Below are positions 28,661 to 60,655 of a stretch of 64,000 nt of DNA, piece after piece (within the stretch, counting starts at the first letter, position 1; each line of letters opens with the position of its first letter). Under the pieces are notes generated by a model. It was given only the letters and a program-made list of their open reading frames with translations, was not told the DNA's origin and searched no databases. Both the position numbers and the translations under genes were made by a program. The DNA comes from Lophium mytilinum (lineage: Eukaryota): positions 227,397 through 291,396 of the forward strand of contig MU004191.1 in NCBI GenBank assembly GCA_010093605.1. The letters run 5' to 3'.

Positions 28661-28760
28661 TAGGGGGTAGAGTGTATAGTAATAGATATATACTATCTAT
28701 CTAATATATACTATCTATAATATATATACTACCTATTAATTAGGGGGTATTTATAGTTTA

Positions 28761-31440: not shown

Positions 31441-32164
31441 AGGAATTTCTAAATTAAGAAACGCGCGGAGAATACTAGTTACTTACGTAACCTTCTAGAA
31501 GACTATATATTTTACTGCTCTACGGGCTTTACGCTACTCTATAAAAGTTTACCTACTTTTTATATAAAATTTGCGCGCAGGCTGTATAGATAATTCTTAA
31601 TTATAGATAATCTAGCATTATAGATAATTATTATAGTTAATAACTACTTTATAGTCCTTATAAATATAGCTATCTACCTCCTCTATCTAACCTTTTAAAA
31701 CCGCCTAATCCGCCTAGGTTATAGATAGATAGATAATAACATAGATAGGGCCTTATATACTAAATACATAATTATCGCGTATAGTAGGAAATTTAAAGTT
31801 GCACTAGTATATTTAGTTATCTCTTCTTACTACCTCTACTAGGGCTTTATAGTCTATAGTAACTTTATATATATTATAGACTTTACGCGTTATATAGATA
31901 GTAATACCTATATATATTTCTAAGAATTATATAACTATTACTAACCTTAATAATTTTAATATCCTAGTAGACTATTAGAGCTAGCAACGCGTGCACTAGA
32001 TGTCCGGGCTAGAAAATAGCACGTAATATGCACGTTGCGTGTTAGATAGTAGACTATATAGTAATTTAGAATACATCTAATTGCGGTATATATATTATAA
32101 AATAGAAAGATAATACTAAGTATAAGATAGAGCCTACTTATACTCTATTTACTAATTCTATACT

Positions 32165-36159: not shown

Positions 36160-37069
36160 NNNNNNNNNNNNNNNNNNNNNNNNNNNNNNNNNNNNNNNNN
36201 NNNNNNNNNNNNNNNNNNNNNNNNNNNNNNNNNNNNNNNNNNNNNNNNNNNNNNNNNNNNNNNNNNNNNNNNNNNNNNNNNNNNNNNNNNNNNNNNNNNN
36301 NNNNNNNNNNNNNNNNNNNNNNNNNNNNNNNNNNNNNNNNNNNNNNNNNNNNNNNNNNNNNNNNNNNNNNNNNNNNNNNNNNNNNNNNNNNNNNNNNNNN
36401 NNNNNNNNNNNNNNNNNNNNNNNNNNNNNNNNNNNNNNNNNNNNNNNNNNNNNNNNNNNNNNNNNNNNNNNNNNNNNNNNNNNNNNNNNNNNNNNNNNNN
36501 NNNNNNNNNNNNNNNNNNNNNNNNNNNNNNNNNNNNNNNNNNNNNNNNNNNNNNNNNNNNNNNNNNNNNNNNNNNNNNNNNNNNNNNNNNNNNNNNNNNN
36601 NNNNNNNNNNNNNNNNNNNNNNNNNNNNNNNNNNNNNNNNNNNNNNNNNNNNNNNNNNNNNNNNNNNNNNNNNNNNNNNNNNNNNNNNNNNNNNNNNNNN
36701 NNNNNNNNNNNNNNNNNNNNNNNNNNNNNNNNNNNNNNNNNNNNNNNNNNNNNNNNNNNNNNNNNNNNNNNNNNNNNNNNNNNNNNNNNNNNNNNNNNNN
36801 NNNNNNNNNNNNNNNNNNNNNNNNNNNNNNNNNNNNNNNNNNNNNNNNNNNNNNNNNNNNNNNNNNNNNNNNNNNNNNNNNNNNNNNNNNNNNNNNNNNN
36901 NNNNNNNNNNNNNNNNNNNNNNNNNNNNNNNNNNNNNNNNNNNNNNNNNNNNNNNNNNNNNNNNNNNNNNNNNNNNNNNNNNNNNNNNNNNNNNNNNNNN
37001 NNNNNNNNNNNNNNNNNNNNNNNNNNNNNNNNNNNNNNNNNNNNNNNNNNNNNNNNNNNNNNNNNNNNN
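36160..37069. other. Assembly gap (910 N)
   Basis: Run of n bases. The true length is unknown. Confidence 1.
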
Positions 37070-37779
37070 ATTAAGAAGCGTAATAAATATAATAGTATTT
37101 TAGAGTATTTTCTAAATTAAGTAGAAAGGTTATAAATAGATAGCGTCTAAATTAGCTATAGAGTAGCATATAAATGTATTATACTATCTTAAAACTAACC
37201 TAACTTATCTCTATATCTAATTAGCTATAGTGTTAGTAGTATATTAAAATATAGGTAGCTAGAAAGGGCTTAGTATTAGTAAGTATATACTTTTCTACCT
37301 ATTTTCTTTTAGCTAGTATGTATATATAGCACTAAATTATACTACTATAGACCTATAGTGCACTCTAATTTATAGGCTGCTCTATTTAAATCTCTTTATT
37401 AGAAATATAAGTAAGATTAGACGCATACTATCTACTAATATTCTGCGGTCTAGATTAGAATAGTAGAATAGAGAGTTCTTGCAACCTTTCTATACCTTAT
37501 AATATATAAGAATATTACTAATAATATATATAGGCCTATAGAGTATTAGCGCTGCTATATAAATATTTACCTATATAATACTATAGTTTATATTACTAAT
37601 ACTTAGGCCTTAAATTATATTTAAGGCTTATACTACTAATATCTAAGCCTTATAGTAAGTATATAGTTAAGTAGATTATATTAATATTAAAAATAGGCAG
37701 TCTATAGTAGACCTACTATAGATATAGTATACTTATTAACGCGGCGATTATAGGTATATTATAGAAGTAGAAGTTAAAA

Positions 37780-40700
37780 TAGTTTATTTTATAATGTCTA
37801 CTATAGAACTATATATACTATATAATTAGTGCATTTAGTAGTTACCTTAGTACTAATAGTCCCTTAGTTTTTCTTCTTTTTTAGTATACTTTATATAACC
37901 TTATATATAAACTTATTATTATTAACTATATAGAACTAAGCTAGTATATCTACCGGGTTATTACCCCCTATATAGGCGAGAATAATGCTATATATTCTAT
38001 TAGACCTCTAGTTCTTCTACTATACTCTAGATATAATCTATATCTTAAGGCTAGATATAGTCTATAGCTCTATAACTATTACGCACGTGCATTAAAAAGT
38101 AAAGTTAGAGCCTTCTACTCCTCTAGTCTTCCGGTTCGCAACTAGAATATTAACAGCCGCTAGATTATCTTAATTACGCTTAAAGCCGGTATTAAATTAC
38201 TTCTATTACTTAACTATTAGTAATAAATATAACTATATAAGCTTTTTAGTTAGTATAGTCTTTATAATTATCTAGTATTAATTATATTAGTTTATTAGAT
38301 AATAATTACTAATTATAGATAGAGATAGGTGGCAACTTATAATATAGATAACTAAATTAACTATAGGCTTCTTACTAATAATTAGTATCTTCTTCTTCTT
38401 AGCTTAAATGTATTAAACTATGCTTCTAATTTTCTTTAGCTTTCCTAAATTAGCTAGTAGATTAGTATACTATTTAGTAAGGGTACTCTCTAAGTCTATA
38501 TAATCTATCTAGCCTATATTTTTAATATCTTCTAGAGTAAAGATTAGGTTACTTATTAAGCTAAGCTCTTTCTATTATGTCTTTAACTTAGCCAGCCTAG
38601 AAATTAATGTAAAAATCCAGGGCAGCCTCCCCTTACCTAAGCCCGTTAGAAAGGCGCCTAGGCTAAAGAAAGGCGGCGGCTTATTAATTACTACTTTATA
38701 CCTTAGCTATTCTTTATACTCTTCTTTAAGGTCTATATATCTCTCTCTAATAACTATATAGTACTTCTTAATAAAGAGTTTAAAGCGGTTAGGTATACTA
38801 ACTATTACCTGCTATATAATATAGAGCGGCATATCCCCTAAAAAAAGGCTATCTAGGCTAAGGCTTATTAGTATTCTATAGATACTTATAGCTATAATTA
38901 TATCTAATACTCTCTAGAGACGCCTAGATAATTTAGAATTATTCTATAGTTACCGCTCTTTCTCTATTTTTAAGGTAAGATAGTAACCTCTAGCCCCTAT
39001 AAGGTCTCCTTAATTAATACGCCGGAGGGTAGGGCCTTAATAAAGAATATTAAACTTATCCCCTTTATTTATATTCTCTTTCTCTAACTCCTTATCTAGA
39101 AGAGTATTATTCGGGTTATCTTTAATATTAGCGTCTAAATTAGTTAAGTCCGCTATCTAAGTTAGCGTCTATAAACCTCTATATAGTATAACTATTAGAT
39201 ATAATAGAGTTTTAGGGCCGTAGAGAAAAGAAGTCCTACTATAGAATAAGCCTCTAGGGTAGCTATATAGATTAGCAGCCTTATTAAACCCTTTTAAGTT
39301 CTAGCTCTAATAAACCTAATTAAGCGCACGGTTAATATTCGCCTATTTGCGCGTAGTTAGGCGGAATATATACTAATACTACATGGACTTAATATAGCTA
39401 AAAGCTATAATATATAGAGATATATTATTAAATTCTAGATAGAACTTATTAAAAAAAACAGCCCTATATATATACGTGGGGGTTACTTTATTACTATATA
39501 ATAGGTTATAGAATATTATAAAGGTCTCTAGTAAGTTTAAATTCTTATTATATTTTTTATTAAAGGTCTCCGCGCTTATAATAATAAGGTAGGTTTTTAC
39601 TCTTAGATTTAGCTTATACTACATCTAACTATTTATTTCTTAGTAGATAGGCCTAAGGTTCTTCTAGTCTTTAAAGGTAAAGTTACCCTCTATAATACTT
39701 CTATATACACGCCAGATATAAAGTCTTCTACTAGGGACCTTAAAATCCTTATTCTTATATTTAATATCTAGCTAGTATTTTACCTTCTTATAGGTCTAAT
39801 TTAGTAGACTCTTCTTAGTAAGCTAAATAATGTAGCCTTTAACGCTGCTAGAACGCGGAGTATTAGTACTAGCCTCTCTAGTATAAGTAGTAAATGCTAT
39901 TAATATTTATAGAGTTTTTCCTATCCTAGGGGGGTTTATAAGAATTAGCCTACGCGCTCTACTAGTAAGACCTTAGATAATACTATATATCCCGGCCACC
40001 TAGTATAGGGCCGCATGCATCTTTAGGTTAGTAGTTATTTCTAGCAGCTTAAAGGTTATATTACTAGAAAAATTCCTATATATTAGAGGTAAACTAAAAA
40101 ACTATAGTACCTTCTTAAATGCTGCTACTAAGATATTCTTTATAGAGCTTAATATTAGGGCTATTATAGTAGTAATATTAATAGTATCTATCTTTTCTAT
40201 ATTAGCTATAATTATCTTATTTATATCTATAGAGGGTCTAGTCTTGCTAAGACTATATATATTAAATTTAAGCGTAGCCGCAATATTAATACTACTAATT
40301 ACTATATCCCCTATAACTTAGGTATTACTAGAGATAGTCTAGCCGCTCTCTATAGTAACTATAAGCGCATAGAGTTATTTTTAGGTAGTTAAATACTAAG
40401 TAGTTCTAGGCCTAAGCGCCCTAAGCTACTATATAACCTTATTATAAATAATACTAGGCTAAATAGAATTACGCATTAACTTAGTATATAGCTAGATAAT
40501 ATTAAGTATCTATTAGATTAGTTACGCTTTCTTCTCTATTTATAGCTTCTATACCTTCTTCTCTACTAGTAGTTTCTACTTTCTTTATTTCTCTTACTCT
40601 ACCGTCTCTTCTAGCTATTTCTACCTTTTTACTTTCTCTTTAGTTATAGTCTTAGCTAGCTCTCTCTCCTTCTATTCTATCTACTTCTTAGCCTTCTCTG

Positions 40701-42500
40701 CTATTACTATATCTACTAGCTCTCTCTTCTTTATCTCTTTCTTCTTTATTTCTTTCTTCTTTCTTTCTTTCTCTACTTTTACTATTTCTACTAGCGCTTT
40801 CTCTACTAGCGCTTTCTCCGCCAGCTCTTTCTCCGCCAACTTTTTCTTCTTCTTCTCTTTCTCTTTCTTTTCTCTTTCTACTTTCGCTGTTTCTACCAGC
40901 TCTTTCTTCTTTTTTTCTTTCTCTTCTTTTACTATATCTACTAGCTATTTCCGCTTCTCCCCTTTATTCTACTCTATAGTAGAATTAACCCTATCTATAT
41001 TAGCTATATATATATCTAGACTTATAGTTAAGTTAATAATTATTTTATCTAAAGTGTTAGCGGCGGTAGATTTAGGTAGACTCTTAGCCGCGGCAGCCTT
41101 AGGCTTACTGCGGCGGGGGCGTTTCTTAGCCGGGTAGATACTAGGGGGCGGGGACTTAAAAAAGTGCGGACCTAGCTATATATTAGTTAGTAGTAATATT
41201 TAATAATTAATAATAATTAATATACGTCTAGTCTTAAGTTTAGATATTACCTCTTTAATATTAAGGCCCTTTACTATAAAACTAAGCACTATCTCTTTAG
41301 GTATACTCTTTATTTTCTCTAATAGCGTAGTTAGATAGAAGTTATTCTCTATTAACTTCTAGGTTCTATTAACTATAATAATATACTCTAGAGGGTTAAA
41401 GTCTATAAAAGTTCTATTAATAGCTTCTAGAAACTTTATAAAGCTATAGTCTTCTAGCTCTAGGCCTTTACTACTAGACCTTACAAGATAGAGAGTAAAA
41501 AGGCGTCTAGTACTTTTCTACTGCGGCAGCTAGTATATTATAGTAAGGACCGCGTGTAATAGCTAGAGCTTAAATAGGGCATTTTAGGTAGTAATATCTA
41601 GAGATTTTATTAGAGAGCTAAGGCCTACTAATATAACTAACTTTGCGGACAAGGCTAACTTAGACTGCTTCCGCTTCTTATTACTTTTAATAATACTACC
41701 CTATATTTTATATTTCTTATAGACTTTATACTAGATTAATATCTAATATACTTACTTCTACTTAGCTAATATAGAAGACTTCTTAAATATGCAACTCTAT
41801 ATATTTATAAAAAGCGTATATATTTTAGACTAAGTATCTAAGTAGGTGTTATTCTTACTATAGTTATTTTAGCCTAGTTATAAAAGACGTTTTGCCTGCA
41901 GGTATGCTTTAGAGTTCTCTATTAGTATAAATAAGTTAGCTTCTATCTAGTACTATATCTTAAAAGCTAGACCTAAGCCAGCTATAATATTTATTTAACT
42001 TAAGTAGCCTTTAGGGTTCTTAGTAAAATTAGATACTATCTTACTCTATATAGATATATTATATAGCAGATCTACTAGAAGTATTATAGCCTTCCTCTAA
42101 GTAGGTCTAGAGTATTAGTAGCTACTATAGAAAGGCTAGCGGCTATAGTAGTTATCTAGCTTATCTAGCTCTAAATTACTATTATAGTCTACTTAACTAG
42201 AGTCTATACTTAATAACTATTTATCTAGGTTAAACTTCTTATTATTTTAATTATTAGGGAGGCGTTATTAGCAACTAGTATATTAACCTAATCCTTTAGC
42301 TATATTAGGTAAATAAGATAAGAAGTTAGGGTATAAGAAAGGTAGATAGAAGGGGGTAGAGTTAGTAGATAGAATAGCGTTATATAGTAATGCGGGTAAG
42401 GGCAGGCGGAAGGCTAATAATATTAGATAAACAGCAATAGTAAGTAATAAGTAAGGTAGTTACTTACCTATAAAGTTATAATAGTAGACGCTACTTATAG
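37780..42500 (-). pseudogene. RIP-degraded SNF2-like superfamily-2 helicase/ATPase with an N-terminal K/E-rich coiled coil, intron-containing
   Basis: De-RIPped motifs in the correct order: Q-motif PYQVAG (~40000), motif I GLILVDPPGMGKTLQ (39907-39951), Ia YIIWLTKKSLLDQT (~39800), II VFFDEFH (39439-39459), SGKL (~38440), IV EKILIISE (~38380), V TGGVEGSNFT (~38110), VI QIxSRVxRKNQ (38008-38040). K/E-rich tract at ~40540-40960. The 5' end is approximate. Confidence 0.8.
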
Positions 42501-44849
42501 TATAATTAACCTTAGGATTATACGCGTTAAAAAATAAGGTAACTATAGTAGAAGATATATAAATCCGCGCGCGCTAGTAATAGAAGTAGCTACTTTTAGT
42601 TATACTTTTAAATAGGTATAACATCTATTAAAGAAGTACTTATAGAGCGGTACTAGAAATATAGTAAGTGCAGGCAAGCCTAAGGCGTAGAGAAGAAAGT
42701 TAGCGTATAAGGGAGGAAGGAGAAAAAGAAGAGAGAGAGAAAAGAGAGAGATAGAGGAGGAGGAGAATAAGAGAGGAAAGATAGGTAAGAATAGTAGATA
42801 AGAATTAGAATTAAAAGGCTAGATAGAAGGTAAAGTTTAAAGTAGCGCATAATTAAGTATATAATTAGTAAACAGGCTATATTATAATATAATAGAAGTA
42901 AAGAGTTATATAGCTTAAAAAACTCTACTACCTAATAATTAGTAATAATCGGCCTCTACCTTAATATTTATCTATACCTATTAGCTTTTAGTAATGCTTA
43001 ATAGATTAGTAATAACTTCTACCTAATATTACCTTCTACTTACCTAGGTTAGTTAATATAGGGAGAAAGGCTAATTTCTATATATAGGTGCCCCCCCCTA
43101 TTATTTAAGTTAGTGTTATAAGCTCTACTAGATTAGCGGCTAATAGGTTAAAGTCCTTAGAATAGAAAGAGAAGTTAGCTATAGCTATCTAAGAAGGTAC
43201 TATACTACTTATTATTACCTAAGCTACTACGCGCCTCTCTACCTCTAATAGTAGCTTATTATCTACTAAAGTTGCGCCCTATAAGCTAGTAGGCAGTAGT
43301 ACTAATTTATATATCTTCTTACTATCTACTCTTTTTATAAGTATTACTAATTTAGCTTATACTATAGAATAGCTTACTTACCTACTCTCTCCCTTACTAA
43401 ATAAGCACCTTTACCCTCTAGCCCCTCTACTAGCGCGTACACTACCTCTATATAGAGAACGCCTACTTTAACCTACCCGGGAAGACTAGCGTTACCTACC
43501 TATATATTTATTATACTTCTTATCTACTTACTTACTCCCGCTAGCGCTAGGCTAACTATAGTCTATATTTAACTAGCCTATATATCTTTCTCTCTTATAG
43601 CCCTCTACTACTCTAGGCGGCGCTTTCTAGAGGCTCTACTTAGTAGTTTCCGCTCTCTTTCTATCTCTTACAGCTCGCGCTCTAATAACTAGGTTAGCGC
43701 GCTTCTTCTTGCGGATTTAGCCTTTCTAGAAGTAGTAGAATTATATAGTTATATTTTATAGGCCACGCCTCTAGAATATATATAGGTTAGTAATGCTTAG
43801 GTTTACCTATTATAGTATACTATAAGGCTAACCCTTAAGTATAGCTTAAAATTAGTAGAGGTAGGTTAAAAGTAGATAAGAAAGATAATAGAGTAATACT
43901 TAGATATTTAGAGGACTAATTAACTACTATATAGTACCTGCATTCTACTAGGTAATTTAGCTATTAAATACGCGTTTAGATAAAAGCCTCTTAACGTAAC
44001 TAATATCTTACTAGACGTAATAGTACTTAGTTCTAATTTAATTATTAGCCTAATATTATACCGGCCTTAACTCTAACCCTCTAGAAGGTAGCTACTACTA
44101 TAGCAACTTACGCCTTTTATAATAATAGCTAATATACTACCAGCGCATATTAAACTAAAGCTTTAAACTCTTCTAATAACCTACTTACTATTAAATTATA
44201 GCCTCTTCTCTAACCCTAACTATTTTATTTAGAATATAAGCGTATCTACCTATACTAATACTAACTAACTATTTAAATATATTAGGCCTAACAGTAATAT
44301 ATAGTCTAGAATGGCAAAGGCTAATATACTTTAGATAGAGACTAAGTAGTAAGTCTAGCTTATGCGCAGTAGTATCTAGACTTAATAGACTAATCTATAT
44401 ATAGAGAGGTTACTACTAAGCCCTTCTTTTAACTCTACTCTAAGGGTGCTAACTAATTCTTTAATCTTCTATATAGTATACGCAAAATCTTAGTTATAAG
44501 AAATAAATTAAATAAACTATAGGGAGCGGAACTTAAAAAGATACTTACTACTTAAAAGACTATAATATAGTCTACTAATAGGTTTAAGTCTATAGTAACC
44601 TTTAAAGAGAAATATAGCAACCTCTAAAAGCACTAGAGATATACTAAATACTAACTTAATTCTATAGTAAATATTCTAATCTTAAAAGGCTAAATAGGGG
44701 TAATAGATGCCTACGCCCTTACTATTATTCTAATAACCATGCCCAATGCCACCCGTGCGGTAAAGCTTGCCAAGGCGCTATAAGACTAAGAGCTACTAAA
44801 GTAAGTTATAATTAAGTGCTAATTTAGAATCTCTACTTAGATGCGCCCT

Positions 44850-46970
44850 AGCCTACCTACTAATATACCGGGTATATAATAGTGCACTTACTCTTATTAT
44901 TTTAATCTAGATATATATAAACTATAAAAGGTAGCCTCTATAAATAAGCCTAAGTACTACTATAACCTTACTATTAAGGGCACTCTTAAGGTTCTTAAGA
45001 TTCTAGAAGAATACCTACCGCCCTTATTTAGAGGCTAGATAATTAGGTGTAATACTAACGCGACCGCTAGTAAAGAGCTAGTAGAGGTCCCTATCTTTCT
45101 TACTATTATTCTAACCTAACTAGCTACCCCTGCTAAGCTAGTAAAACCCTATAAGAGGTTAATATAGAACGCTATTTACTATATAAGGGTCTAAGATAAA
45201 TATAAGTCTTATATTAGTCTACCTTAGAATCTATATTCTAAATAGTATATACCTATTATCTTATATATAATCTATAGAGAATTAGCTAATAGAAGTCTAG
45301 CCTTATAAATATAGCTTATATTTATAGTTCTAGTATTTAGATTACTATATACTAATAAGCTATACTAGATTATATTCTATAGCTAAGCGGACTCTCTACT
45401 TAATACTGTTTATACTAATAAGAAGTTTAAGGCTATAATAATAGATAGTTTTACCTAGATGCACCTAGTTATATCTACGCTAGATACTCTAGAGAAGTTA
45501 GCGTCTATAGAAGTATAAGCTAGAGAATTTTACAGCCTTAAGTAGCCCCTAAACCTACTATAAACTACACCCCCGCTCCTAGAGTTATAGAAGGCTAAAC
45601 TTCTTACCTAAACTAATCTACTATTTATTAGAATTATAGAGCACCTACTAGTGCCCTAGTATAACTACTATACCTACTCTTCTATTAATACTCTAAGTAA
45701 GTATATAGACCTAGATTATATTCTTTATTTTAAGATTACTACTTCTAATATAAAGAAGTAAAGTCTAAATAATAAGCACCGGCATGCTACTTAGACGGCA
45801 TATAAAAATATTGCCTAGCGTACTATACTAGTTAACTTATTATAGAAATAGGTTAATACCTAGACTTATAAGAAGTTTTATAAGGTATTATATAACGCAG
45901 CTGCTAAAATACTTATAGTATTATCTATAACGCTAAATATAGTAAATATAATAAATAATATAGTAGAGAGCTTTATAGACGCAACTAAGCCCCTTTATAT
46001 ATATCTAAATTAGTACTAGGTTCTAATAATAGAGGATTATATACTACTAGAGAGACTATATACTATTAATATTTCCTACTAAGGCTACTCTAACTAGTTT
46101 CTATCCCTGTTTAAGTTAGTATAGATTATAGTTAAGCGAGTTTATAACTTTAAGATAACTAGTAGACCGGAAGGGCATAGTAAATATAATATTAAGAATA
46201 TCCTTAGGTACTATACTAAGGTACTAGATAAGTTTAAGGCTAGCCGGGCTAAGGCTAGTAATAGTGCAGAGGGGGATAAATAGAACGCTGCTAAAGTCTA
46301 CTATATTAATAGTCTAATCTTCTATATAGACTACTATATAGCTAGAGGTTTTACTATATTTATCTAAGAACTAATTACTAATAGTACTATTAACTATTAT
46401 AAAGTAAGTAGCTATTTAGCAGTTAGCTATTACTACTCCGCCTTTAGCTATAATAGAAGTAATAACTTCTACTCTAAGTGCAATACTAGTAAAGATAATA
46501 ATACTAACTAAGATAGTACCTATACGCTATACTCGGGCGATAATAAATTAATACGCCGGCGGCTAACTATCTTAGATTGTATCTATAAGGCTATTCTAGA
46601 CCTTAAGAACTGCGCTAGACTCCTTAATAGAGATAGTAATAGTAGTAATAACTTAAATGCGTAAGATAATTATAGACTATAGAATCCACGCAAAAATAAG
46701 CTTAGCTAGAGAATATAGAACTATATAGCTAAAGCGTTAGCTAAAATATAGTAAGTAGTAGAGGGCTACTATAATTAGGAATAATTAATAATAATTAAAA
46801 ATAATTAGACATTCTATAGGCGGCCTAGGTAGACTATAGTATAAGAGTTACTACTAGCACTAGTTATAGGCGCCGGTAACTTAGATAGAAGGTAGCATCC
46901 CCGCTACTAATTTAGAGGTATTAGTAATCTAGAAGTCTTCTATACCTATATACTTAATTTAAAATACTAA
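44850..46970 (+). pseudogene. Long RIP-degraded reading frame (~700 codons), function unrecognised
   Basis: One plus-strand frame reads as plausible protein, with stops only as TAG/TAA at positions compatible with Q/W/R codons. It is preceded by an intron-like GTAAGT..GCTAAT..TAG at ~44801-44840. Confidence 0.45.
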
Positions 46971-48459
46971 GTTATTATTATATTTACTATAGGTTATATA
47001 TATAAATACTAGATAGTAATATATATAGCCTATAAGCTAATATCTTTCTAGGGCTAAATATCTACTAGCCTAATTTCTAGCACTATTAATAAGGGCTTAA
47101 TAATTCTTTAGCTTCCCTATTAACCCGGTATAGAATAGAGCCTAGAGTTTTACTAGAGTGTTATTATAAAAGTAGCTAAAGAACTTAACCTACTTTTAAT
47201 GGCGCGGTATAGACTATTAAAGAAAGGCTTAAGTACTTTTATAATCTATAAGAAGATAGTCCTCTACTCTTACTACTTACTAGTCCTTATAAGTTATCTA
47301 CTCTCTATCTACCTTATCTTTATTAAGTGTAGTTATTACTAATATATATACCGCTAATTCTACCGCGTATAAGAGGCTTAAGTAGCTAAATTAGTAATAT
47401 TATAAAACTCTCTACCTAACTAGCGCCTTCTAGCTATTATCTAATTTTGCGCCGGCTAAGAGAGACGTAGAGTTTAACCTAGGCTACTTAATGCGCATCT
47501 AATATTACTATCTTATAGCTATTCTATAACTAATACTTACCCTAGCGGCTATCTTCTTAATAACGCCGGCACTCTTAGTAGATGCCCGTTAACTCTATTC
47601 TACTAGACTAGTAATGTATCGCCGCCTAGCGCTCGCCTTATAGAAGGAAGTAACGCGCTTAGACTTAGTATCTTCTTCTATATTACCTAGATAGTACTTA
47701 CCTAGAGTTAAGAGTTCTTTACTATAGCTAGTAACTACGGTAGAAAGTTAGATACTAGAAATTAGTAAAAGGTAATACTTACTTTTAATACACGCTATAC
47801 TATTAGAACTAGGGAAACTAGATATAACTACTAGTATATACTTAAAACTACGCCTACTATAAAGGTTTATACTAGCTATAAAGAATATAGAAATAATAGA
47901 AATAATTATATATAGGCTTTAGAGTTGCAGTTTAAGAAAGTAAGCTATAGTCTTTAACGCGTAGATATATTAAGGTTCTAGGCTAATAGAATAGCCCGCC
48001 CCCTATTAGAATATATTACGTGCTATTAAAGAATAATAAGTACTATATACTAGCCTATAATCTAATATAATCTATAATAATTACTTATAATCTATAAGTT
48101 TCTATATAGGGCTAACTAAATTTAACTAGAAATAGAGTATATACCTTCTACTAAATATAGATACTACTATAAGTTATTTTAAATACTTAGTGCCCTAAAT
48201 AAATATATACTATACTATAAAAAGCTTCTTAAAATACTGCAGCAGGTCCCGCTTACTAATACTAGAACTACTAGATCTATAATCTAGTCTTATATACTCT
48301 ACGTTATTTAGATAATAGACGGGATATTATTTAGAACGCCTAGATTACTACTAGTAAGTCTACCTCTACTAGCTAACCTCTATAATAAGATAAAGTATAA
48401 GATAAATAGAATAGAGCTATATATCTCTAGTAAACTAAAAGAGTACTAGAGTCCGCCTT

Positions 48460-51400
48460 TTATAAATAAAGGCCCTATAAGCTTAATATATAATAACCCG
48501 CCGGAGGCTACTAAATTCTATATTCCGCACTAATAAGGCTAACTAATAATATTATCTATATTATTGCTATAAGAGGAAGTATATCTCTCTACTAAATTAG
48601 GCATGCCTGCAGGGGCGTCTATTAGATAGGCTAATACTAGATAGTAGATATAAGTATTATTAGAGACCGCTATCCCCCCCGCCTATAAAGGCGGTATTAA
48701 AGCTTACTAACTAGTTACTCTATTATAGGGACTAATCCCCCTTCTATCTATTTTAATTAGCGTTTAACTATACTTTTATATTATAGCTTTAGTAGATTAG
48801 CTGCACTAAGAATAATATTAACCTGCTATTTAATAATATCTACCTTAAGAGCATATTCTCTAACTTTCTTATATTTACATCGGGCGATTTATAGAATAGT
48901 AAACTAGAGAAAATTAAATATAGCGTTAATAATACTAACTATATAGTAGAGATGCTATATTTCCTAAGTAAAAAATAAAGCTTAAGTAGAGAGTAGTATC
49001 TAGTATACTACTTTAATATAATAGTAGCTATATTATTCCTAATTAGACACCGCCCTTTCTATAATTACCTTATATTTATACTAGTTTAAGTCTATAATAT
49101 AGAAGGCTAGTAGGTATATACTAAGTTATATATATTAGACTAGTAGTAGTAGACTTAGTTAAAGCTTCTAGCGGGGGCTATAGTAATACCTATCTTACTC
49201 TCCGTAGATAAGATATAGCTTATCTAATATTGCGGCGATAAGAGCGTATAGCTAGTCTATCTAACTATTAGTAACCTAGATAGAACTATATGGCGCTTAA
49301 ATATATTACCTAGCACTCTACTACTAGGCTTTATACTAAGCACGGCGGATAAAGGAGACTATCTAAAGTATTAGCTATACTATAGCTCTTTAGGCTATAT
49401 TCTTAGATATTAGTAAAATTCTTACTAATACTAAGTAGTTTTCTAATATAAAATAAGCTATTATAGAATATACTACTAATAGAATTATACTAGAATACAG
49501 GGATAGTAAGAATTAAAGGTGCTATCTAGTATTATACAGAATTATAGCTAATTATAAAGAATAGAGCCTACTTATAGGTATTAAATTTAGAAAACACTAT
49601 ACTATATACTAGGTACTATTACATTAATATAAAGACCTAGAGACTAAACATACTATAAGGTCTTACTACTTAACTATTATTTAGATTAAATAGCAACGTA
49701 ATAATAAAGAGCGTTTAAAACTTCTACTAAATAAAGTACTATATAATATAGAGGCTATAGAGCTTAATATAGAGTTATATATATATTCTATAAATAACTT
49801 TACTTAGAAATACCCCTATACTAATATCTACTAGATAATAATAATAGATATTCTATACTAACTATTTACGGGCGTTATTTATAACCTTATTAAATAGGTC
49901 TAGCTACTAGTAGCGGAGGTCTACACCCTAGCAATTAGAAGAAAAGATGCCTATATTCTAATAGAAAATAAGAGCGGCTTAACCTAGCTAGATAAGTAAT
50001 TTAAGGACGTGCTGCCTTTCCCGGGTCTATCTATATTTAATAAGAAGAATTTTAGTAAACTCTTATAGTATACTAGCTCTAAATAAAAGTCTATAGCCCG
50101 CTAGCTTATAGTAGTAGTAGCACTACTACTAGAAGTAAAGGCGCTAAATACGCTCTAGTTTATCTATGCAATACTTAATTTTACTATTCTAGTATAGTAT
50201 AAAATATATAATAAGGCTACGCTAGAGTATATAGAGCTAGCGATAGCTTAAATTAATATATATAAGTTAGAATTTAGGATATTTAGACCTAGAAATAAGA
50301 ATAGAAACTACGCCTTCTACTACTTAAAATTCTATATTATATAGTACTACGTTAATTTTATATAGAAATTTAGCGCTATTAATAGCTATAACACTAGCTT
50401 AAATAGTAAAGTAAAATACTAACACCTAGTTAAATTACAGTATTAGTTAATAAACTATAAGGACTTTCTACCCTAGATCTACTAATTAAACTAGAGACTT
50501 ATAAATAACTAGGCCATAAATAATATACTAAACTACTAATATTACTATCCTTAACTAGCAGCGATAAGAGATATGCTAATGCAATAGATAATAGTATTAG
50601 AAAGTATTAACATCTTAAACTTTAAATAGCCTAGATATAATAATTCCTATAAAGGCTAAATAGTATACTATCTAAAAGTAAGTATTAAGTATATAGCTAA
50701 TATAAGCTAGAAGCTAGACTTTATAGCCGCCGCCGCCGTATTTATTTAAGAAGAGAGGCGTAAGATCTAAGGCTAATATACTAAGCCTAGCAGCCTAGAT
50801 ATATTAGACCCTAATCTATTCTAGGTTAGCTACCTCTAGCTTAAGTTCTATGCTAGTATTTTATATTAGAAGTAATTAGGTACTAGTAAGAACCTAGAAA
50901 GCCTTATAAAAGAAAATCTATAGTATAACCCTAAGTAGTAGAACTAAGAATAGTAATATAACTATCTATAGGTATAAGAGTATAGCTTAAACTATACTAA
51001 AAATAGAAAGACGCGCGTTAGTATTACTAATAGAAGGTTAGTAGAGTAGCTATAATTTATAGTAACTATTATAGACTCTATTCTAAAGGGTAAAGATACC
51101 CTATAGGCGGTATACTCTAGAGTTTTTATTTACCTTCTAGCGCTAATTAATAACGGAAAGCTATATTATATCTATAGCCTAGTAGAGGTAGCTTTTTAGG
51201 CTTCTAATAATAGCCGCCGCTAATAAAAGCTAGAAGTATATTAATTCTATCTACTACTATAAGTCCTCTAAAGTGCACATATTATACTAGCTACCTTTAG
51301 CCCGGACTCTACCTGTTTTTTTATTAATAACTATATTAACTAGAATTAATATAATACACTCTATATAAAAGACTAGAAGATAGAGGTATAAGAGATAATA

Positions 51401-51594
51401 AGGTAGTACTAGCTTAGCAGTTACACTAAAGAGATTAAAGCTACCCTAAGAGTTAAAGACGCAGTAGAGTTTTTAGTAAAGCGCGCAAGGGTAAAAGTAC
51501 TTACTAACGCCTCTTTCCTACAACTAAGCCGGTAAATACTAAGAAGTAGTATAGTAAAAAGAAGCTATAGCACTAGCAAGCAACGGCGTAGGTA
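48460..51594 (+). pseudogene. RIP-degraded Plavaka-family transposase
   Basis: De-RIPped: FLIGHRPF..LVFAPVRVYN.EGQRVYTEL..DWWWQTQ.KLPAGATV.PILLS.DKTQL.Q.CGDKS.WPVYLTIGNLD (~49035-49280); CGDGKNRRCYPVL..IMADYEEQSLLTG; DILHQLFTGV (~49850); LDKRFKDVPPFPGL; YPKFHIMQHYVDFIRKFGAIDGYDT; C-terminal FINNYIDWDQYNTLY (~51320-51365). These match the conserved blocks of Plavaka transposases (Pfam Plavaka). Ends are approximate. Confidence 0.9.
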
Positions 51595-51699
51595 GAAATA
51601 AGGCCGCAAGGAAAGATATTCTTAATTTTTCCCTACTATTAAGAGATAATTAAGCATTATTTAGCTTTATTAACCTCTAAGGCTAATTAATATAAGATA

Positions 51700-54600
51700 A
51701 TAACTATGTACTTTCCTATATAATTTCTATAAAACTAGGTAACGCTAGTATACCCCGCTAGCGCTACCTTACTTTACTTTTTAAAATTGCATATTACTAC
51801 CTTTACCTATTTCCCTTTACTAATAATAGCCGCCTAATTAAATTTACCGGCTACTTAAACTTACTACCCCCTAATTACTTTCTTTCCTTAATACTTTATA
51901 GTAATTAACCCTAAATAGCGCCTATAGTAAGCACGTTATCTATACTAGAGGTTCTAGGCTATAGTTAAGTTATAAACCGCTTTCTAGTAGGTTAATACTA
52001 TAAGATAGAGGTATAAGGTATAAACCTTAATATACTTAAACTATACTTACCTATTCTAGTCTAGTTAAACGCGGATAAACCTCTCTCTAAACCGGGTTAG
52101 AACTATAAGATACCCTCCGCCTTTACTAGAGCGTATACGTCTAAAGAGGGGGATATCTTCTACCTCTATAACTTTAAGCATGTTAGTAATAATACTCTAT
52201 ATTTTAGCCCTATTAAACTAACACCTACAAGCTATATAATATTCTAGCTAATAATACTAAGCTAATAGAATAAGTATTTTATTAATTAAAGCTGCACCTA
52301 TCTATACACAGTTAGAATGTAATTCTCTTATAGCCCTACGCTATAAGATATAATACTAAGATAAATTATCTAGAAAAGTTAGTAAGCATTAGCCTACTTA
52401 AAGAGGTAAGTAAGTACTCCCTCTTCTATAGATACCTGCTAATATAATATCCCTTTTCTAGCTATTTAGGTAATACTATTAAGACTCTATTATTTATAAT
52501 ACTTATATATATATATTACCGGGTAAAATACTAATCTTTACTCTTCTAAAATTCTTTTATATATACAGTTACGTCTACTATATAGACCTAAATACTAATA
52601 AATACTTTAGCCTATAACTATTATCTCCTACTATAATATATATAGATTGCGGATCCGCTAGCCTTATAGATAAGTGCACCAGTCTAGACCCGCTCTAACT
52701 AAACGCAGCTAACTAGTTAATAATACTTTAAAACCTCTTAAGTAATATCTATATATAATATATTATTAACTATAAATAATAGTTAGACTATAATCTACTA
52801 AAGCCTTTTAATCTAGAGGACTTTTAGCACTTAGTTAATCTATATATAATAGAACTTACTAACTATAGAACTAATTTAAAGATAAGTAAAGCGTTTAAGT
52901 TAGAATTTAAGCCTAATATAGATAATATAGAGAAGAAGAATATAGAGATAGAGATAGGCAAGATAGGTAATATTAAAGTAGAGATAGAGGCAGATAATAT
53001 AGAGATAGAGGATAGCGGGTAGAAGGCTTCTCTTAAGCGTGCTTAAGTTATATAGTAGGTAGTATATATAGTTAGTCTAGACCCCTAAATATAGTAGTTT
53101 ATTCTATAATAGCGTCTATATTTAAGTATAAGGTATAATAGGGTTTTAAAAATATTAATATATAAGTTAATTACTAGCAATTTAATTTTTCTTACTACCT
53201 ATACGCTTAACCCTTCTCTTTTATAGATTATTAATTATAATTAGAGATTATATATATCTCCCTTTTATAATTAGAGTTAGCCCGCTACTTATATTATCTT
53301 ACCCGTCTTAATTCTATTATACTCCTTCTTATTAAGCAGGGCTACTACTTATTTAAATACCGCGCAGGTATATATAAGTTAGTTACACTAGTTAAGATTT
53401 ACGCCCTATAAACTATTTAAAGTAATACCTAGGGTAGCTAATATTAGGGGCTACATTTCTAATAATATTAAGAGGTATTCTATTAGTAGACCTACTACCC
53501 TATCTAATAGACCTAAATTCTTTCTCTAATTCTAAAGTAGCATATATTATTCTTTATCTTTAGGCCCTAACGCTAGAAGACTGCTCTTTATAGAGCCCGG
53601 TATTACCCGCAGCTTCTACTCTATTACCTCTAACACTTAATATAATTAATTATAATTAGAGATTATTACCCTCTCGCAATAGTATAAAGTCTACCTTAAC
53701 TATCTAACTTCTTAGGCTACGTAGCATTATCTATTACCTAAGCTAAGGCTATAAACCTACTTTACCTAGTAGACGCGCATTATATTATAGCTAGTAAAGA
53801 CCTTTACCTTCTCTACTAATAACTAAGCAGGCTAGTAAGTAAAATTTAACTCTAACCTTACTCTTATATATAAGCCTTACTATACTCTTTCTTACTATAT
53901 TACTAATAGCTTAATAGCCTAAGTTACTATAACCCCGCTACTATAATAGAGTAGATAGCAGTCTACTAGAATAGACTAGTAGACCTTACTATTACTATCT
54001 ATATTAATAGCTATATAGACTACTTTAAAGCGCTATATACTATATATAGTAGAGATAATCTAGAGAAAGCTACTATATTTCTCTAGCGCCCTTAGAAAGA
54101 TATTATAGACTTTAAGATTAAATATAACGCACTTATCTAGTCTATATATAAGTATTTACTATACCTAGTTCTAAGTTAAGAATTAAATAATATAAAGGGC
54201 GGCTAGTCTAATAAGCTAGAGATAAAAACTATGCCGGAGGTAGTAAAGAAGGCCTATAGAAAGGGCTCTAAAAGCTTCTTTATTAAGAATTAGGCCTATA
54301 TAAATCTATCTACTACTTCCCCACCTATATCTACTAACTATTTACTAGTATAAGAAGCTTATAGTACCTATAGTTCTAGATAAGAGCGGCTTTAAATACT
54401 CTAGAGGTAAAGAAGGTATAGTAGTATAGCTGCGTAAGGGCTATAGACTCTAAGTTAATATATCTATAAATACGCTTAATATTACTAGTAGTATAGCACT
54501 AATTATATATATAAGCTATACTTTAATACCTACCCTACTAAGTATATTCTAATCTATACTTATTAATATAGATGTTAGAAAGACCTTCTACTACTACTAA

Positions 54601-56080
54601 GACCTAAAATATACGCCGCTGCTATATATAAGAAGATTATATATTTACTAACCTGCATTTAGTTCTCTTACTAATGCGTGCCTACTTTATTAACTCTAAA
54701 GATAGTTCTATATTTAAAGTTAGCCTTATAAACCTAATATTATTCTACTTAAATTACGCCGCCTTAGGTAAGGCTATTAGCTACTATGCAGCTACATCTA
54801 GGGAGAAAGGGGAGAAAGATAACTATAACCTCTAACTAGAAGTCTAAATTTATACTAAGCACATCCTTATAGTTAAGCTGTAGATCTTAATATTCTAGAA
54901 GACTAGAAGCGTATAAGCGGCGCTATTATTACTAGAGACCTATATCTTTATAGATAAGCTATAGACCTTAATACGCTAGAAGACTAGAGGTATATAAGAG
55001 GCGCTATTATTGCCGGAGACCTTAGTAATAGCTAAGGCTAAAGAGAAGAACTTAGAAATAGTAGTATTAGAATAAGAGACTTAAGATGCAACCTTAAAGA
55101 ATAAATATAAAGCACTATCTAATAAACTAGAGCCTATAGATCTTATAGAAGATAAAGATAAATTAGATATATACTACTTTAATAATAGAAAAAACTAGGT
55201 AGAGAAAGTTAACTAGAATAAAGAAAATACTATAAAGAAGGTATTATTTATAGGAGACCTAGATAGCTTAGAGGTAGCGGAGGCGGCCTTATATAAGGCT
55301 AAAATAGGCCTAATTATAGCTTAGACTAGCATTAAGAAGGCCTTAGAAATTATGCGTACTTACATAGTAAGGGATAAAGAGAAGAATACTAACTCTACTA
55401 TCTTTTACTTCTCTAATATTATCTAAGAGACGCCTAAAAGTAGATATAGAAGGCGTATATACTTAGTATAGTAAGTACCTTCTTAAGAAATTACTAATTT
55501 TCTAGTATATATATAGGTAGAAAGCGGCCTTAAATAGAACTATATAAGTCTACCTATATATACTTTCTATATACCTTCTATACTCTTACACTGCTACTAA
55601 GTTAACTTTTAATAAATGTATAGCATGTATATATACCTTATATCTTAAAGCCTACCTCCGCCCTAAGCTCTAACTTAGAAACTACTTATCTACCTACTTC
55701 TAATATAAACCCCCTAAACTACACGCGCTTAAAAATACTACTAGTCTTATAATACCTATTTAGAGATATTCTATAGTTATAATACCTAGCGCGTTAAGCT
55801 ATAATATAAGGGATTAAACCTAAGGCTAATTAAGAATAACTATTAGTAATAATAGCGCACTACTATAAAGACGCACTTATATAAGATTCTAATAGTATAC
55901 TTAAGAAAAAAGTATATAGTAACTATTAGTTAAAATACATGCGCCTAAGTTTTAAATTTCTAGCGCCTGCCCGCATATATAATAGAACTATTCTCCTCTA
56001 TTCTATAGATATAAAAGCCTGCCCTATATCTCTTTCTCTATACTATAGAGTAGTAGAAGGTAGTAAGAGTTAAAAAGGTA
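51700..56080 (+). pseudogene. Further RIP-degraded plus-strand reading frames (at least two), unassigned
   Basis: Codon-like frames at ~51700-53020 (ending in an acidic E/D tract) and ~54000-56080. No family motif recognised. Confidence 0.3.
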
Positions 56081-58006
56081 GAAGAGTTATAGTAGAGATT
56101 AACTTAAGGCTAACTATTTAAAATATAGCGGGTATTAAAATTATATATACTAATAAATTATAGTAGAGGCTAAAGCTAGTAGAAACTTATTTAAGAAGCT
56201 AGAATATAGAGAATAAGAGGCAGTACGTAGGTATAGCTTACTAATAGTATCTACTATAATAGAAAGCTAATAGCGCACTAATATTTAGGTTAGTAGTTAA
56301 ACTAGCATAGTTCTATAGAGCTATATTAGGTAAAGATAATATACTCTAGTATTACTAGCTTATATTATCTACTAAGCTTCTCTATCTCTTCTACTCTACT
56401 CTATAAGCTTTTTTATCTACTAGGTTTCTCTATTCCTCCCGCTCTACTCTATAGAATTTTTTTTCTACTAAGTTTCTCTATCCCTCCCGCTCTACTCTAT
56501 ATAATAGCGCCTTAGTTCTAGTATAATCTTTTATATACATAGCTCTTAATCTTCCTAACTACTATATATAACTATATATCTATATTCCCTACTAGCTTTT
56601 AACTCTACCCTAACTACTACTTCTCTAGCCCTACTTTCCTTAGAAAATAAGCGGGCGGATAGAATATATACTCTATTACTAGTGCTAGATATACTTTAAT
56701 CTAGTATTATAGGGACAACCTAGCCCTTATATATACTAGTAATAGATAACTATCTACTATATAATAATGCAGTAGAGAGAGGGAAAATAAAGCTACCTCT
56801 ACTCTAATATCTCTAACTCTTCTTATAGTACTATATAAGATTATTTAGGATTATATAAAATTATCTATAATTATTATAGCGTGCCCTCTATATTTTTACA
56901 TTCTAAAAGAGACTCTAGCCTATTTCTTTAAGTATATTTTAGGTTCTATAACTGCCCTGCTAGATAGAGAGTATATATTTTTATTACCTTTTAGCGCATA
57001 AGTATACTATAGGCTAGGTTATAAAATAATAGTATCCTAACTTCTAAGGTTAGAAGTATAATAGGAGAGACTATAAATAGAGGAGCGGTAACCTAAAATA
57101 TAGATAGAAGAAGTAAAGTATACTAATATAGAGAGAAATAAGAGATATAGAAGAAGTAAATAGAAAGAAGGGGCTATAGAGGTAGTAGCATTATAGCTAT
57201 AATACTAGAGGCTATTCTATAATATAAATATAAGAGACTACTGCTAGAGCTTATATTAGTAGTAGAATAGTTATATACTTTTTATTATTTATAGATAGTT
57301 ATATACCGCGGCCTAACTCTTAAATAATAGGTCTTAGTAGTAATATAGTAAGAGTCTACCTAAGAATATATTAAGTATCCTAATTATAATTTATAAGCCG
57401 GACCTAGCGCTAAATTATAGAATAGATAGATTATATCTTTTCTACCTATTCTCTATGCATTTATTAAATCTACTTTTTAACTACTACAGCCCTAACTTTA
57501 CTATACTAACTATTTATAGAATAAAGATTAAACGTTCTAGCCTAAGTACTTACTATTTCTACTTACTTCTACCCCCGCCTTATACTACTATAGAGAGGAA
57601 AGAGCGGTAAATAGAATTATTTTATAGTAGGATGTAGGTAGTATTATATATGGGGCATGTATATATTAGCTCTAGCACTACTAAGGCTAATTAGGTAAAA
57701 GATACTATAGAACTAAATTATTAATAGTTTAAAATAATAGATAATAATTAAGTATTATTAGACTATATAGTATATAGGTAAACTACTACTAGTCTATATA
57801 GTAATATTACCTGCGCTAGTAGTTTATATAGATATTATATAATTTATATAGTTTACTAGAAGTTTACGCCGTTCGCTACTAAGTACTAATAGCCCTAACT
57901 TTTGCAGTTTTAGGTTTTTCTAATAAATATTAGGGTTTAATTCTAGAGTTAGGTTTACATGCTAGTAGAGAGGAGGATTTAACTATAGATTAAGTTATTA
58001 ACTTAC

Positions 58007-58209
58007 ACTAGAAATACTAAAAATTATTAGTATATAAGCTTTAATATATATATAAAAGGCCTTACTAATAGCTAATATAGGTATATTAAAAAGTAGTTAA
58101 AAATTAATATATAACCTATCTAATAATCCTAGGCGCGCGCTTACAAAATTAGGGGGGGTGCACGGAGAAAAACGCTAAGGAATGTACTCCGTTTTGAATA
58201 CGACAAATC
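58007..58209 (-). repeat. Right terminal inverted repeat (~200 bp)
   Basis: ...CCTATCTAATAATCCTAGGCGCGCGCTTACAAAATTAGGGGGGGTGCACGGAGAAAAACGCTAAGGAATGTACTCCGTTTTGAATACGACAAATC, the reverse complement of the left TIR. Its outer ~70 bp is less RIP-mutated than the left copy. Confidence 0.95.
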
Positions 58210-58859
58210 GGGGTGGGTTGCGTCAGTTTGGAGTGCTCGCGGGACGCAGCTTTTGACGAGCCAGACACGGGAGACTCTTCCGCTGTGGCTCAGTTCTGCG
58301 GCGGCACACTGTGCACCTGCAGGGTTTCACTGATGGATGCCCGATGCTGCACCGCCAGATGAAGACGGCTAGCTGGCCTCTTGGGCGTTGTGATTATACC
58401 AGAAATCTTGGTATAGTTGCCAGACCTCAAGCCTTGACGGCGAGTTCAGACCCCGCTACTGACTGCCATGCTTTGACACATGCCCCCTGCGCCCAGCGAC
58501 GTCAATTTACGGTCATGAGAGTGGCTGCTTGCTTGTCTCAACCAGAGCTTTCTCTCTCTCTCCACAAACCTCTTCCGCTGCTCCTGCCAATCCGTCGCTA
58601 CGTGACCTCCATTTCCCTCTCGCCGGCCTCGGACTACTAAATCCCTCGTACACACTCCGCGCCGTATAGCTCGCGGAACAGCCCGAGTACCTCACCTCAA
58701 CTAACCGAACATTCTTCCGTCACCTCCACCAATTCTCCCACCAGTCATTCACTGAAACCCTCTTGTGGTGGACAACCGACAGAGACAGCTCACCACGACC
58801 CTTCTGTACTCCCCGCCTAACGAGCTCTAGCTTCCTGGACTCCTCCTCTCTCCAGCAAG

Positions 58860-60655
58860 ATGCCGGCTGCTACAGAAGAGCCCAAGACCGACGGCCGCCT
58901 GCTCCTCGTCTCCAATCGGTTGCCTATCACAATCAAGAGATCAGATGAGGGCAAATATGATTTCTCCATGTCCTCCGGGGGTCTCGTCAGCGGATTGAGC
59001 GGCCTCTCCAAGTCCACCACCTTCCAGTGGTACGGCTGGCCAGGTCTGGAGGTGCCCGAAAACGAGATACCCGAGTTGAAAGCGAGGCTGAAGGACGAAT
59101 ATAATGCGGTACCCATCATGCTGGACGACGAGCTCGCCGACAGGCATTACAACGGCTTCTCAAGTTCGTATACACGTTGCGACACATGCAGTCTGCGTCG
59201 TGCAACCCAAAGCTAACAACTGTCCTCCAGATTCCATCCTCTGGCCACTCTTCCACTATCATCCCGGAGAAATCACATTCGACGAGTCGGCCTGGAATGC
59301 CTACACCGAAGCGAATCGCTTGTTCGCCCGAGCAATTGCCGCCGATGTGAATGACAACGATATGGTTTGGGTTCACGATTACCATCTCATGCTGCTTCCT
59401 GCCATGCTACGTGAGGAAATTGGAACCTCCAAGAAAAACGTCAAACTAGGCTTCTTTCTACATACACCTTTCCCGAGTAGTGAGATATATCGGATTCTTC
59501 CAGTCCGCAACGAAATCCTACTCGGCGTACTCCATTGCGATCTCATTGGCTTCCATACCTACGACTACGCCCGCCACTTCCTGAGCAGCTGTTCAAGAAT
59601 ACTGTACGTTACTCCGAACTGATTTTGTTCCCTGAAGATGCATTTACTAACGTTTGTTGGCAGCGGAATGCCCACTACGCCAAATGGGGTTGAGTTCCAG
59701 GGCAAGCTCGTGACCGTCGGCGCATTCCCTATCGGCATTGATCCCGAGAAGTTCGAAGAAGGTCTCAAGAAGCCAAAAGTCCAAGAGCGCATAGCTACCC
59801 TAGAGCGAAAGTTTCAAGGTGTCAAGCTCATCGTGGGTGTAGATCGCCTTGATTACATCAAGGGTGTACCTCAGAAGCTTCACGCTCTGGAGGTTTTCCT
59901 CACGGAGCACCCTGATCAAATAGGCAAGGTGGTACTGGTCCAGGTAGCAGTACCTAGTCGACAGGACGTCGAGGAGTATCAAAATCTACGGGCGGTTGTG
60001 AATGAGCTTGTGGGAAGGATCAACGGCAAATTCGGTACGTTCAAGATAGAAGTTTGCACTATCTTACTAACATTGACAGGCACGATCGAGTTTATGCCCA
60101 TCCACTTCATGCATAAATCCGTCTCATTTGACGAACTGATCGCTCTCTATGCCGTGTCTGACGTCTGTCTTGTGTCTTCCACCCGCGATGGCATGAACCT
60201 GGTCTCTTACGAATACATCGCTACGCAGCAGAAACGTCACGGAGTCATGATACTGTCAGAGTTTACAGGAGCAGCACAGAGTCTGAACGGCAGCTTGGTA
60301 GTCAATCCGTGGAACACGGAAGAGTTGGCTGACGCGATCCACGACGCTGTGACCATGGGCGATGAACAGCGTGCCATCAACTATCAGAAAATGGCCAAAT
60401 ACGTTAACAAGTACACGAGGTAGATAACTTGCTCTCACAAACCTCCAACCATTCACTAATTTTACTTCCAGCGCGTGGTGGGGCCAGTCGTTCGTCCGCG
60501 AGCTCACGAGAATCTCAGAGCATGCCGAGAGCAAGCTCAAAGTTCGCCGGGGCTCAACCTTCGATTCCACAGACAGCAACGGTCAGCCCGCGGAACGACC
60601 ATCGACTGCGCCAGAACGCATCGTCCCGGCCCCCGAAAAATCCGCGACGCTGTAG
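58860..60655 (+). CDS. TPS1: Alpha,alpha-trehalose-phosphate synthase (UDP-forming), GT20
   Basis: Exons 58860-59163, 59231-59603, 59664-60034, 60080-60419, 60472-60655. Motifs LLLVSNRLP, SSGGLVSGL, HYNGFSNSILWPLFHY, WVHDYHLM, GFFLHTPFPSSEIYR, GVDRLDYIKG, RDGMNLVSYEY, LSEFTGAAQSL. Confidence 0.97.

Follow-up and report, generated by a model that had tools for sequence, protein, structure and literature searches.

Plavaka elements belong to the CMCT clade, that is, to the CACTA/EnSpm-like (CACTA/EnSpm-Mirage-Chapaev-Transib-like) cut-and-paste DDE transposons. Two further systems are close enough to be considered here: Starships, the giant elements of ascomycetes that are mobilised by a DUF3435 tyrosine recombinase encoded at one of their ends, and Mutator-like elements, which carry terminal inverted repeats (TIRs) of about 200 bp and a target-site duplication (TSD) of 9-11 bp. 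The present work concerns a Plavaka transposase gene in a 64,000-nt stretch of Lophium mytilinum contig MU004191.1 (the window; all positions refer to it), where the gene lies within a 31.7-kb AT-rich unit bounded by inverted repeats. For Plavaka, the excerpts of PMC12730594 on element termini give TGT..ACA ends with a TSD of 2 bp and CATCA..TGATG ends with a TSD of 2-3 bp, in agreement with the consensus starts among the entries of its supplement, and the excerpts of PMC12581995 give CATAC ends with a TSD of 2 bp for the Tuber elements. In the same supplement entries the consensus elements of Plavaka measure between about 6.5 and about 25 kb, with PlavakaB at about 24.8 kb, and the words TGTCG and AAAACGG open the PlavakaA and PlavakaB consensus sequences.

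Homology searches confirmed 48682-51374 on the plus strand, at the level of sequence comparison, as a Plavaka (PF18759) transposase gene wrecked by repeat-induced point mutation (RIP). Its parts, named by reference to the homologues P0015 and P0037, are the following.

48682-49410, plus strand: exon 1 part of the relic in frame +1, matching P0015 residues 190-429 (tblastn, E 9e-13), with the images of DWWW, SxDKTxL and WPVYLTIGN
49138-49152, plus strand: the run GAC TAG TAG TAG TAG, opposite DWWW plus one further residue (GDWWWE/D-TQ of P0015 and P0037)
49411-49459, plus strand: frame switch, across which P0037, a spliced gene model, is continuous
49460-51374, plus strand: exon 2 part of the relic in frame +2, matching P0015 residues 485-797 (tblastn, 32% identity, E 5e-29), with the images of ADYEEQ, CxxC, DILHQL, PFPGL, PKFHxxxHY and GxxDxYxT and the C-terminal region

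The sequence-only reading had placed a Plavaka relic made by RIP at 48460-51594, an interval which in its frame holds 135 stops in 1045 codons, and had proposed a profile search as a check. For such searches the translations were read with stops masked as X. The interval then matched PF18759 with 39.4 bits, above the cut-off of 26.3 bits (E 5.6e-10, profile positions 34-241 of 325), and the family assignment and the RIP origin were both borne out by this and the further comparisons described below. A further match in frame +2 from about 49448 covered profile positions 191-318 (22.4 bits, E 8.3e-5); alone it falls below the cut-off, and the two matches together span positions 34-318 of 325. A phmmer search against 1.84 billion representative proteins returned 163 hits at E<=1e-3, 53 of them at <=1e-10 and the best at 4.9e-23. 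Among the hits, two are publicly named; they are uncharacterised proteins from Periconia digitata and Ciborinia camelliae. The homologues P0015, P0037 and P0060 themselves score as strong Plavaka proteins (1.9e-69, 1.6e-54 and 1.8e-75). A profile built from 22 homologues (A1) gave 130.5 bits and E 3e-41 on 48727-49428 (nodes 157-389). With 150 homologues as tblastn queries, all 145 high-scoring pairs (HSPs) fell within 48650-50500, and the window therefore holds no second Plavaka copy.

The major Plavaka blocks had been predicted to read in order once RIP changes were restored, and all eight named motifs did align, in order, to intact homologues in the tblastn alignments. The run of TAG codons had been taken for the RIP image of D-W-W-W-Q; it is present and lies opposite DWWW, the three tryptophans W341, W342 and W343 of P0015 each facing a TAG in a RIP-compatible manner. 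The remaining motifs, written as homologue~relic with stops as asterisks, pair as SDKTAL~VDKI*L, WPVYLSIGN~*LVYLTISN, ADYEEQ~ANYKE*, DILHQL~DILY*L, PEYPGL~LPFPGL, PKFHVMSHY~LKFYII*YY and GTLDGYDTS~SAINSYNTS. In the comparison with P0015, the CxxC and HxxxH blocks (HCTIC~HYTIY and KFHVMSHY~KFYII*YY) differ by C>Y and H>Y, both RIP-type changes. The 26 invariant columns of the 22-sequence alignment A1 were identical in 12 cases and reachable by C>T/G>A in 13; the sole column explained by neither was W274, opposite TAT.

The direction of the changes was assessed over both P0015 alignments. Along residues 485-797, 105 of 310 aligned positions were identical and 189 could be reached by C>T/G>A alone, compared with 112 for the reverse direction (T>C/A>G) and 132 for C>A/G>T. 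Residues 190-429 (240 positions) gave 69 identical and 118 RIP-reachable positions, with 76 and 99 for the controls, and 20 of the 42 stops in the two alignments faced W, Q or R. The relic has a GC content of 0.283, and stops occupy 21 of 243 codons in the exon 1 frame and 59 of 638 in the exon 2 frame. No open reading frame for an active enzyme is left, and we therefore describe the gene as a relic of the Plavaka family and not as a working member. RIP killed it, as is seen from these 80 stop codons and from replacements of the RIP type in the second aspartate, CxxC and HxxxH motifs and in the glutamate region.

The gene is split between two frames. The tblastn matches of P0015 ran from 48682 to 49407 in frame +1 (residues 190-429) and from 49502 to 50464 in frame +2 (residues 485-797); those of P0037 ran from 49015 to 49410 and then from 49487 to 50491. 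In all four intact relatives with this comparison (L001, L002, L004 and L006) the coding region splits into two open frames at the point where the relic switches frame, the first frame ending 6-27 nt past the match and the second opening before the next match. Many of the metagenome open reading frames (ORFs) among the best phmmer hits also end a few residues past this point. The frame switch at 49411-49459 is most likely a short conserved intron, the splice sites of which are not fixable in the window. At its distal end the gene is traced to 51374 by colinear DNA homology to two metagenome contigs, L061 and L007 (blastn of L061 5913-8516 with 48746-51374: 56% of 2714 nt, E 2e-66), and to 51367 by frame +2 tblastx hits; the second exon of L001, 638 codons long, predicts an end of the relic near 51360. 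At the proximal end, profile nodes 1-156 of A1, a zinc-finger-like and an acidic part, found no match upstream, so that the N-terminal 150-190 residues are undetectable. By the homologues, the start would be expected near 48100-48300. The description of the relic as full-length was thus nearly right: it held for the catalytic core and the C-terminal region to about 51374 and is unproven for the N-terminus. Likewise, the predicted gene span stood for 48682-51374, to which the homology is confined, but not for a single frame nor for the outer ~220 nt at each end of 48460-51594.

The surrounding DNA forms a sharply delimited block, the features of which are the following.

26515-58209, no strand: AT-rich RIP-mutated unit of 31,695 bp, bounded by an inverted repeat
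26515-26711, plus strand: left TIR arm, 197 nt, 94% complementary to 58013-58209
58013-58209, minus strand: right TIR arm, pairing with 26515-26711; its outer end is the terminus of the multi-copy unit
30615-31019, minus strand: Tc1/mariner-type transposase relic (DDE_3, PF13358), E 1.4e-6, 28.7 bits with a cut-off of 28.6, profile positions 2-131 of 146
36160-37069, no strand: assembly gap of 910 N inside the 31.7-kb unit; any coding content there is unseen

Within 26515-58209 the GC content was 0.25-0.35, compared with about 0.45-0.63 on both flanks. TpA/ApT reached 1.6-2.3 and (CpA+TpG)/(ApC+GpT) fell to 0.03-0.37 inside the block, both ratios being close to 1 outside. This dinucleotide pattern is the signature of RIP, and the host genome is therefore of the filamentous ascomycete type. 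The distance from the relic to the right TIR, predicted as about 6.6 kb, is 6615 nt when counted from 51594 to 58209.

The two arms align over 203 nt in blastn (93.6%, E 1e-82) and differ by 12 substitutions, all of them transitions, plus one indel. The block has no other long self-match, the repeat is present in two copies in the window, and the GC/AT boundary meets both of its ends to the base. The 197-nt repeat did not extend further inward in a transition-blind (purine/pyrimidine) alignment (41, control 47). The ends of the unit read GATTTGTCG.../GATTTATTG..., and the unit starts with GATTTGTCGTATTCAAAACGG in the right arm and GATTTATTGTATTTAAAACGG in the left arm. Both ends begin GATT- and so differ from the published Plavaka termini TGT..ACA, CATCA..TGATG and CATAC. 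No TSD of 2-11 bp was found at this copy, where the flanks read ...GGCTG and GGGGT..., even with transitions allowed; neither was a Tc1/mariner TA duplication, the flanks ending in ...TG and beginning with GG.... The pattern TGTCG...AAAACGG occurs within the first 21 nt of the inverted repeat, starting 4 nt in from the end; it matched once in the window with 0.08 matches expected, a figure that applies to a pattern picked post hoc.

Contigs of two sequencing runs (X1 and X2) of one sample, probably the source, were placed on 38500-58400 at a likeness of at least 80% (5193 and 4886 contigs). The depth was summed over contigs and is not a copy number; it covers the right 20 kb of the unit, with 26515-38500 lying outside. 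In X1 it was 2170-5600 in all 30 bins, compared with 142 for one unique flank contig, and 3317-4410 in the five bins over most of the relic; over the 20 kb it was even within about 2.6-fold. Differences among the genomic copies in X1 comprised 279 A>G, 288 C>T, 225 G>A and 264 T>C changes, against 6 transversions. We read these data as roughly 20-35 RIP-diverged copies of the right 20 kb of the unit, the relic included. At 58208/58209 the match of 3+3 contigs from X2 came to an end, and these contigs went on for about 255 nt in differing GC-rich sequence; position 58209 is a true terminus common to the copies of the unit. Structural variants were also observed among the copies, namely a divergence at 42913 (a 255-nt loose end) and a joint leading from 55076 back to 52925 through about 38 nt of other sequence. 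The joints 47027>51230 and 48221>56620, each seen in one contig with a short side of 21-27 nt, were not counted as gene-less copies.

Nearly the whole block was scanned in six frames against Pfam with stops masked, except for 35702-36159, the N gap and the +2/+3 frames of 48502-49402, and the only families recognised were Plavaka and DDE_3. Scans of three frames each reading inward from the ends (26701-31202, plus strand, and 53501-58002, minus strand) gave no Pfam family at E<=1, although RIP could hide a weak match; with this same limit, no DUF3435 tyrosine recombinase, expected at one end of a Starship, was seen in these 4.5 kb. A tblastx comparison of the block with 764 kb around 80 Plavaka loci yielded 58 HSPs, all within 48800-51200, and thus no common second gene. 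A minus-strand frame at 38350-41650 has few stops (0.02-0.055 per codon, compared with a block mean of 0.113) and contains a P-loop-like LINPPRIGKT as well as a long K/E-rich stretch; its upper part is rich in purines, a bias that by itself reduces the number of stops. The low-stop frame at 38350-40299 (minus strand, P0175) matched no Pfam or NCBIfam family, and phmmer against the PDB gave only chance antibody hits (E about 0.4). A short motif resembling CTAATACTTAAGCC recurs, direct and inverted, at 28750-28975, 30212-30291 and 37573-37619, and may represent the termini of small non-autonomous elements that lie within the unit as nested insertions.

The closest loci to the relic are on the metagenome contigs L061 and L007, with 34-36% amino-acid identity before allowing for RIP. 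L061:279-9065 and L007:4456-13223 form a common 8.8-kb unit, about 90% identical and with a GC content of 0.35. Its right end, CATCGGGAAAAT... (CATCGGG...), lies 0.55 kb past the gene, and it carries 10-bp subterminal repeats in both orientations. The AT-rich composition, and the absence of any ORF of at least 100 residues from the first 9.5 kb of L061, suggest decay of the RIP type; by our reading of their alignment, the two contigs differ in many transitions. Outside the gene nothing in L061 resembled the window in transition-blind alignments (42-48, controls 36-48; 153 for the gene as control), and a comparison of the window's inverted repeat with the 764 kb surrounding 80 Plavaka relatives gave nothing below E 0.05. 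At 56824-56878, a 10-bp repeat (TATATAAGAT-like) is present in about four copies, which resemble the subterminal repeats of L061 and L007 at 80% of 55 nt; in the transition-blind test this similarity was marginal (42, compared with 36).

A search for ends belonging to a shorter element around the relic gave, in transition-blind alignments, scores of 54/47/44 in inverted orientation compared with 64/51/49 for the direct-orientation control. The candidate pair 43473-43515/51719-51761 (43 nt at 77%) was unexceptional among 434 pairs and was rejected. If the nested ends were short (10-30 nt), RIP would have made them unrecognisable. In a TIR/TSD scan of intact relatives, L004 and L008 yielded nothing and L001 only CAC...GTG/AGG, a weak candidate of 12 nt with 2 mismatches whose motif also recurs internally.

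That the Plavaka resemblance is a chance similarity in low-complexity AT-rich DNA has next to no probability. All that would agree with it is the density of stops, high at 135 of 1045 codons and close to the background of the block DNA, and the explanation is refuted by the matches to the family profile (E 3e-41), to P0015 (5e-29) and, at the DNA level, to L061 (2e-66), as well as by the 25 of 26 invariant columns accounted for. The function of the gene is a different matter. The sequence-only reading had made it the candidate mobiliser of the 26515/58209 element, a reasonable hypothesis that was neither shown nor refuted by mixed evidence: the even depth is in its favour, and the ends, the missing TSD and the close CATC end of the relatives are against it. 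The relic is a fixed resident of the 31.7-kb unit, and we consider it about an even bet that it was a passenger there and not the enzyme recognising the 197-nt ends. This is favoured because the unit has ends unlike the published Plavaka ends and no TSD, and because L061 and L007 have their CATC end close to the gene and the repeat is unmatched in the 80 loci; the DDE_3 relic, a sign of at least two transposon kinds in the block, is also in its favour. The two-exon gene would then have arrived in its own shorter element, of the order of 9 kb as in the closest relatives. This element would have inserted into a forerunner of the big unit at a time before its multiplication, and the relic would have been amplified along with the 31.7-kb unit to roughly 20-35 RIP-diverged copies, the big unit being moved by something else. 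Several points weigh against such a passenger role. No terminal repeats of a nested Plavaka element were found around the relic, and the depth shows neither an excess over the relic nor a sign of free-standing copies, with the limit that 1-3 extra copies would be invisible. Among the Pfam matches there is no second full transposase that could have driven the big unit. The consensus sizes given in the supplement entries of PMC12730594 make size alone no bar to a giant Plavaka, and the post hoc pattern TGTCG...AAAACGG stands in the first 21 nt of the repeat. Lastly, the summed depth, not being a copy number, reaches over the right 20 kb of the unit only.

It is possible, if rather unlikely, that 26515-58209 was instead one giant autonomous Plavaka-type transposon, whose transposase bound the 197-nt ends and of which tens of copies were all killed by RIP. 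The uniform high depth over 38500-58209, relic included, and the precise common terminus would fit, as would the facts that the relic is the only near-complete transposase gene recognised by Pfam in the block, that the PlavakaB consensus measures about 24.8 kb (PMC12730594, supplement entries) and that the Plavaka-like words occur, post hoc, at the start of the repeat. The ends, however, start with GATT- and not with TGT, CATCA or CATAC, no TSD of 2-11 bp is present at this copy, and in the closest relatives the gene is followed after 0.55 kb by a CATC end, the repeat of the window being absent. The gene also lies off-centre, with 21.6 kb of the unit on one side and 6.8 kb on the other, and a second transposase relic (DDE_3) is in the block, which therefore holds at least two transposon kinds. 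These two unrelated relics could also belong to a mosaic AT-isochore of unrelated dead transposons, segmentally duplicated, with the inverted repeat being two copies of a further short repeat that lie at the edges by chance. The missing TSD, the lack of inward extension of the repeat (41, control 47) and the absence of a recognisable gene from most of the 31.7 kb are in line with this explanation, which we nevertheless regard as improbable: the GC/AT boundary coincides base for base with the two ends of the repeat, which is present no more than twice in the window, and the depth is even over 20 kb, with several copies breaking off at the same base into different flanks. Even depth and a common breakpoint fit a discrete unit better than ragged segmental copies.

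Elsewhere in the window, a trehalose-6-phosphate synthase-type gene was recognised at 59092-60420 on the plus strand, its two exons matching Glyco_transf_20 with E 1e-61 and 9e-95. Only about 0.6-0.9 kb separate it from the end of the RIP block upstream, and this closeness may matter for RIP leakage or gene regulation. Internal repeats at 9540-10700, offset by about 150-470 nt and 66-72% identical, lie in DNA of normal GC content and probably mark a repeat-containing gene.

In summary, there is nothing unusual about the relic, which belongs to a known transposase family and was killed by RIP; the giant element around it is moderately interesting. The relic shows that, beyond the truffles, Plavaka transposons also lived in a filamentous ascomycete and were destroyed there by RIP. 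With its base-exact terminus, 197-nt ends and high copy number, the unit offers a testable case of whether DDE transposons, in addition to Starships, can build 30-kb mobile units in ascomycetes, and it bears on the share of the AT-rich compartment that may derive from one family. If the unit were a giant Plavaka after all, it would have TIRs of about 200 bp with ends unlike any described Plavaka, and some 20-35 copies, close to 1 Mb, would have accumulated before RIP silencing. It would then represent a cargo-scale lineage of DDE transposons in ascomycetes, independent of the tyrosine-recombinase Starships.

Among the known systems, Starships resemble the unit in that it, too, is tens of kb long, multi-copy and discrete in its ends and resides in an ascomycete genome; the unit differs by its 197-nt inverted ends and by a Pfam content of Plavaka and DDE_3 only, with no family in the 4.5-kb inward scans from the ends. 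With Mutator-like elements the unit shares the length of its TIR, but not the TSD of 9-11 bp, and no MULE-type transposase appeared in the Pfam scans. The relic itself retains the DWWW, DKT, WPVYLxIGN, ADYEEQ, CxxC, DILHQL and PKFHxxxHY blocks of Plavaka as RIP images. It differs from a typical Plavaka in being dead, with an undetectable N-terminus and with its own terminal repeats and TSD not identifiable, and in its Pezizomycotina-style RIP landscape, whereas the characterised families in the excerpts come from Agaricomycotina (PMC12730594) and Tuber (PMC12581995). The pair of PlavakaB-like relics on L061 and L007 is set apart by its 8.8-kb unit with a CATCGGGAAAAT... end near the gene, as opposed to the 31.7-kb unit of the window; with the relic it has in common the same gene layout, an AT-rich composition and 56% DNA identity over 2.7 kb.

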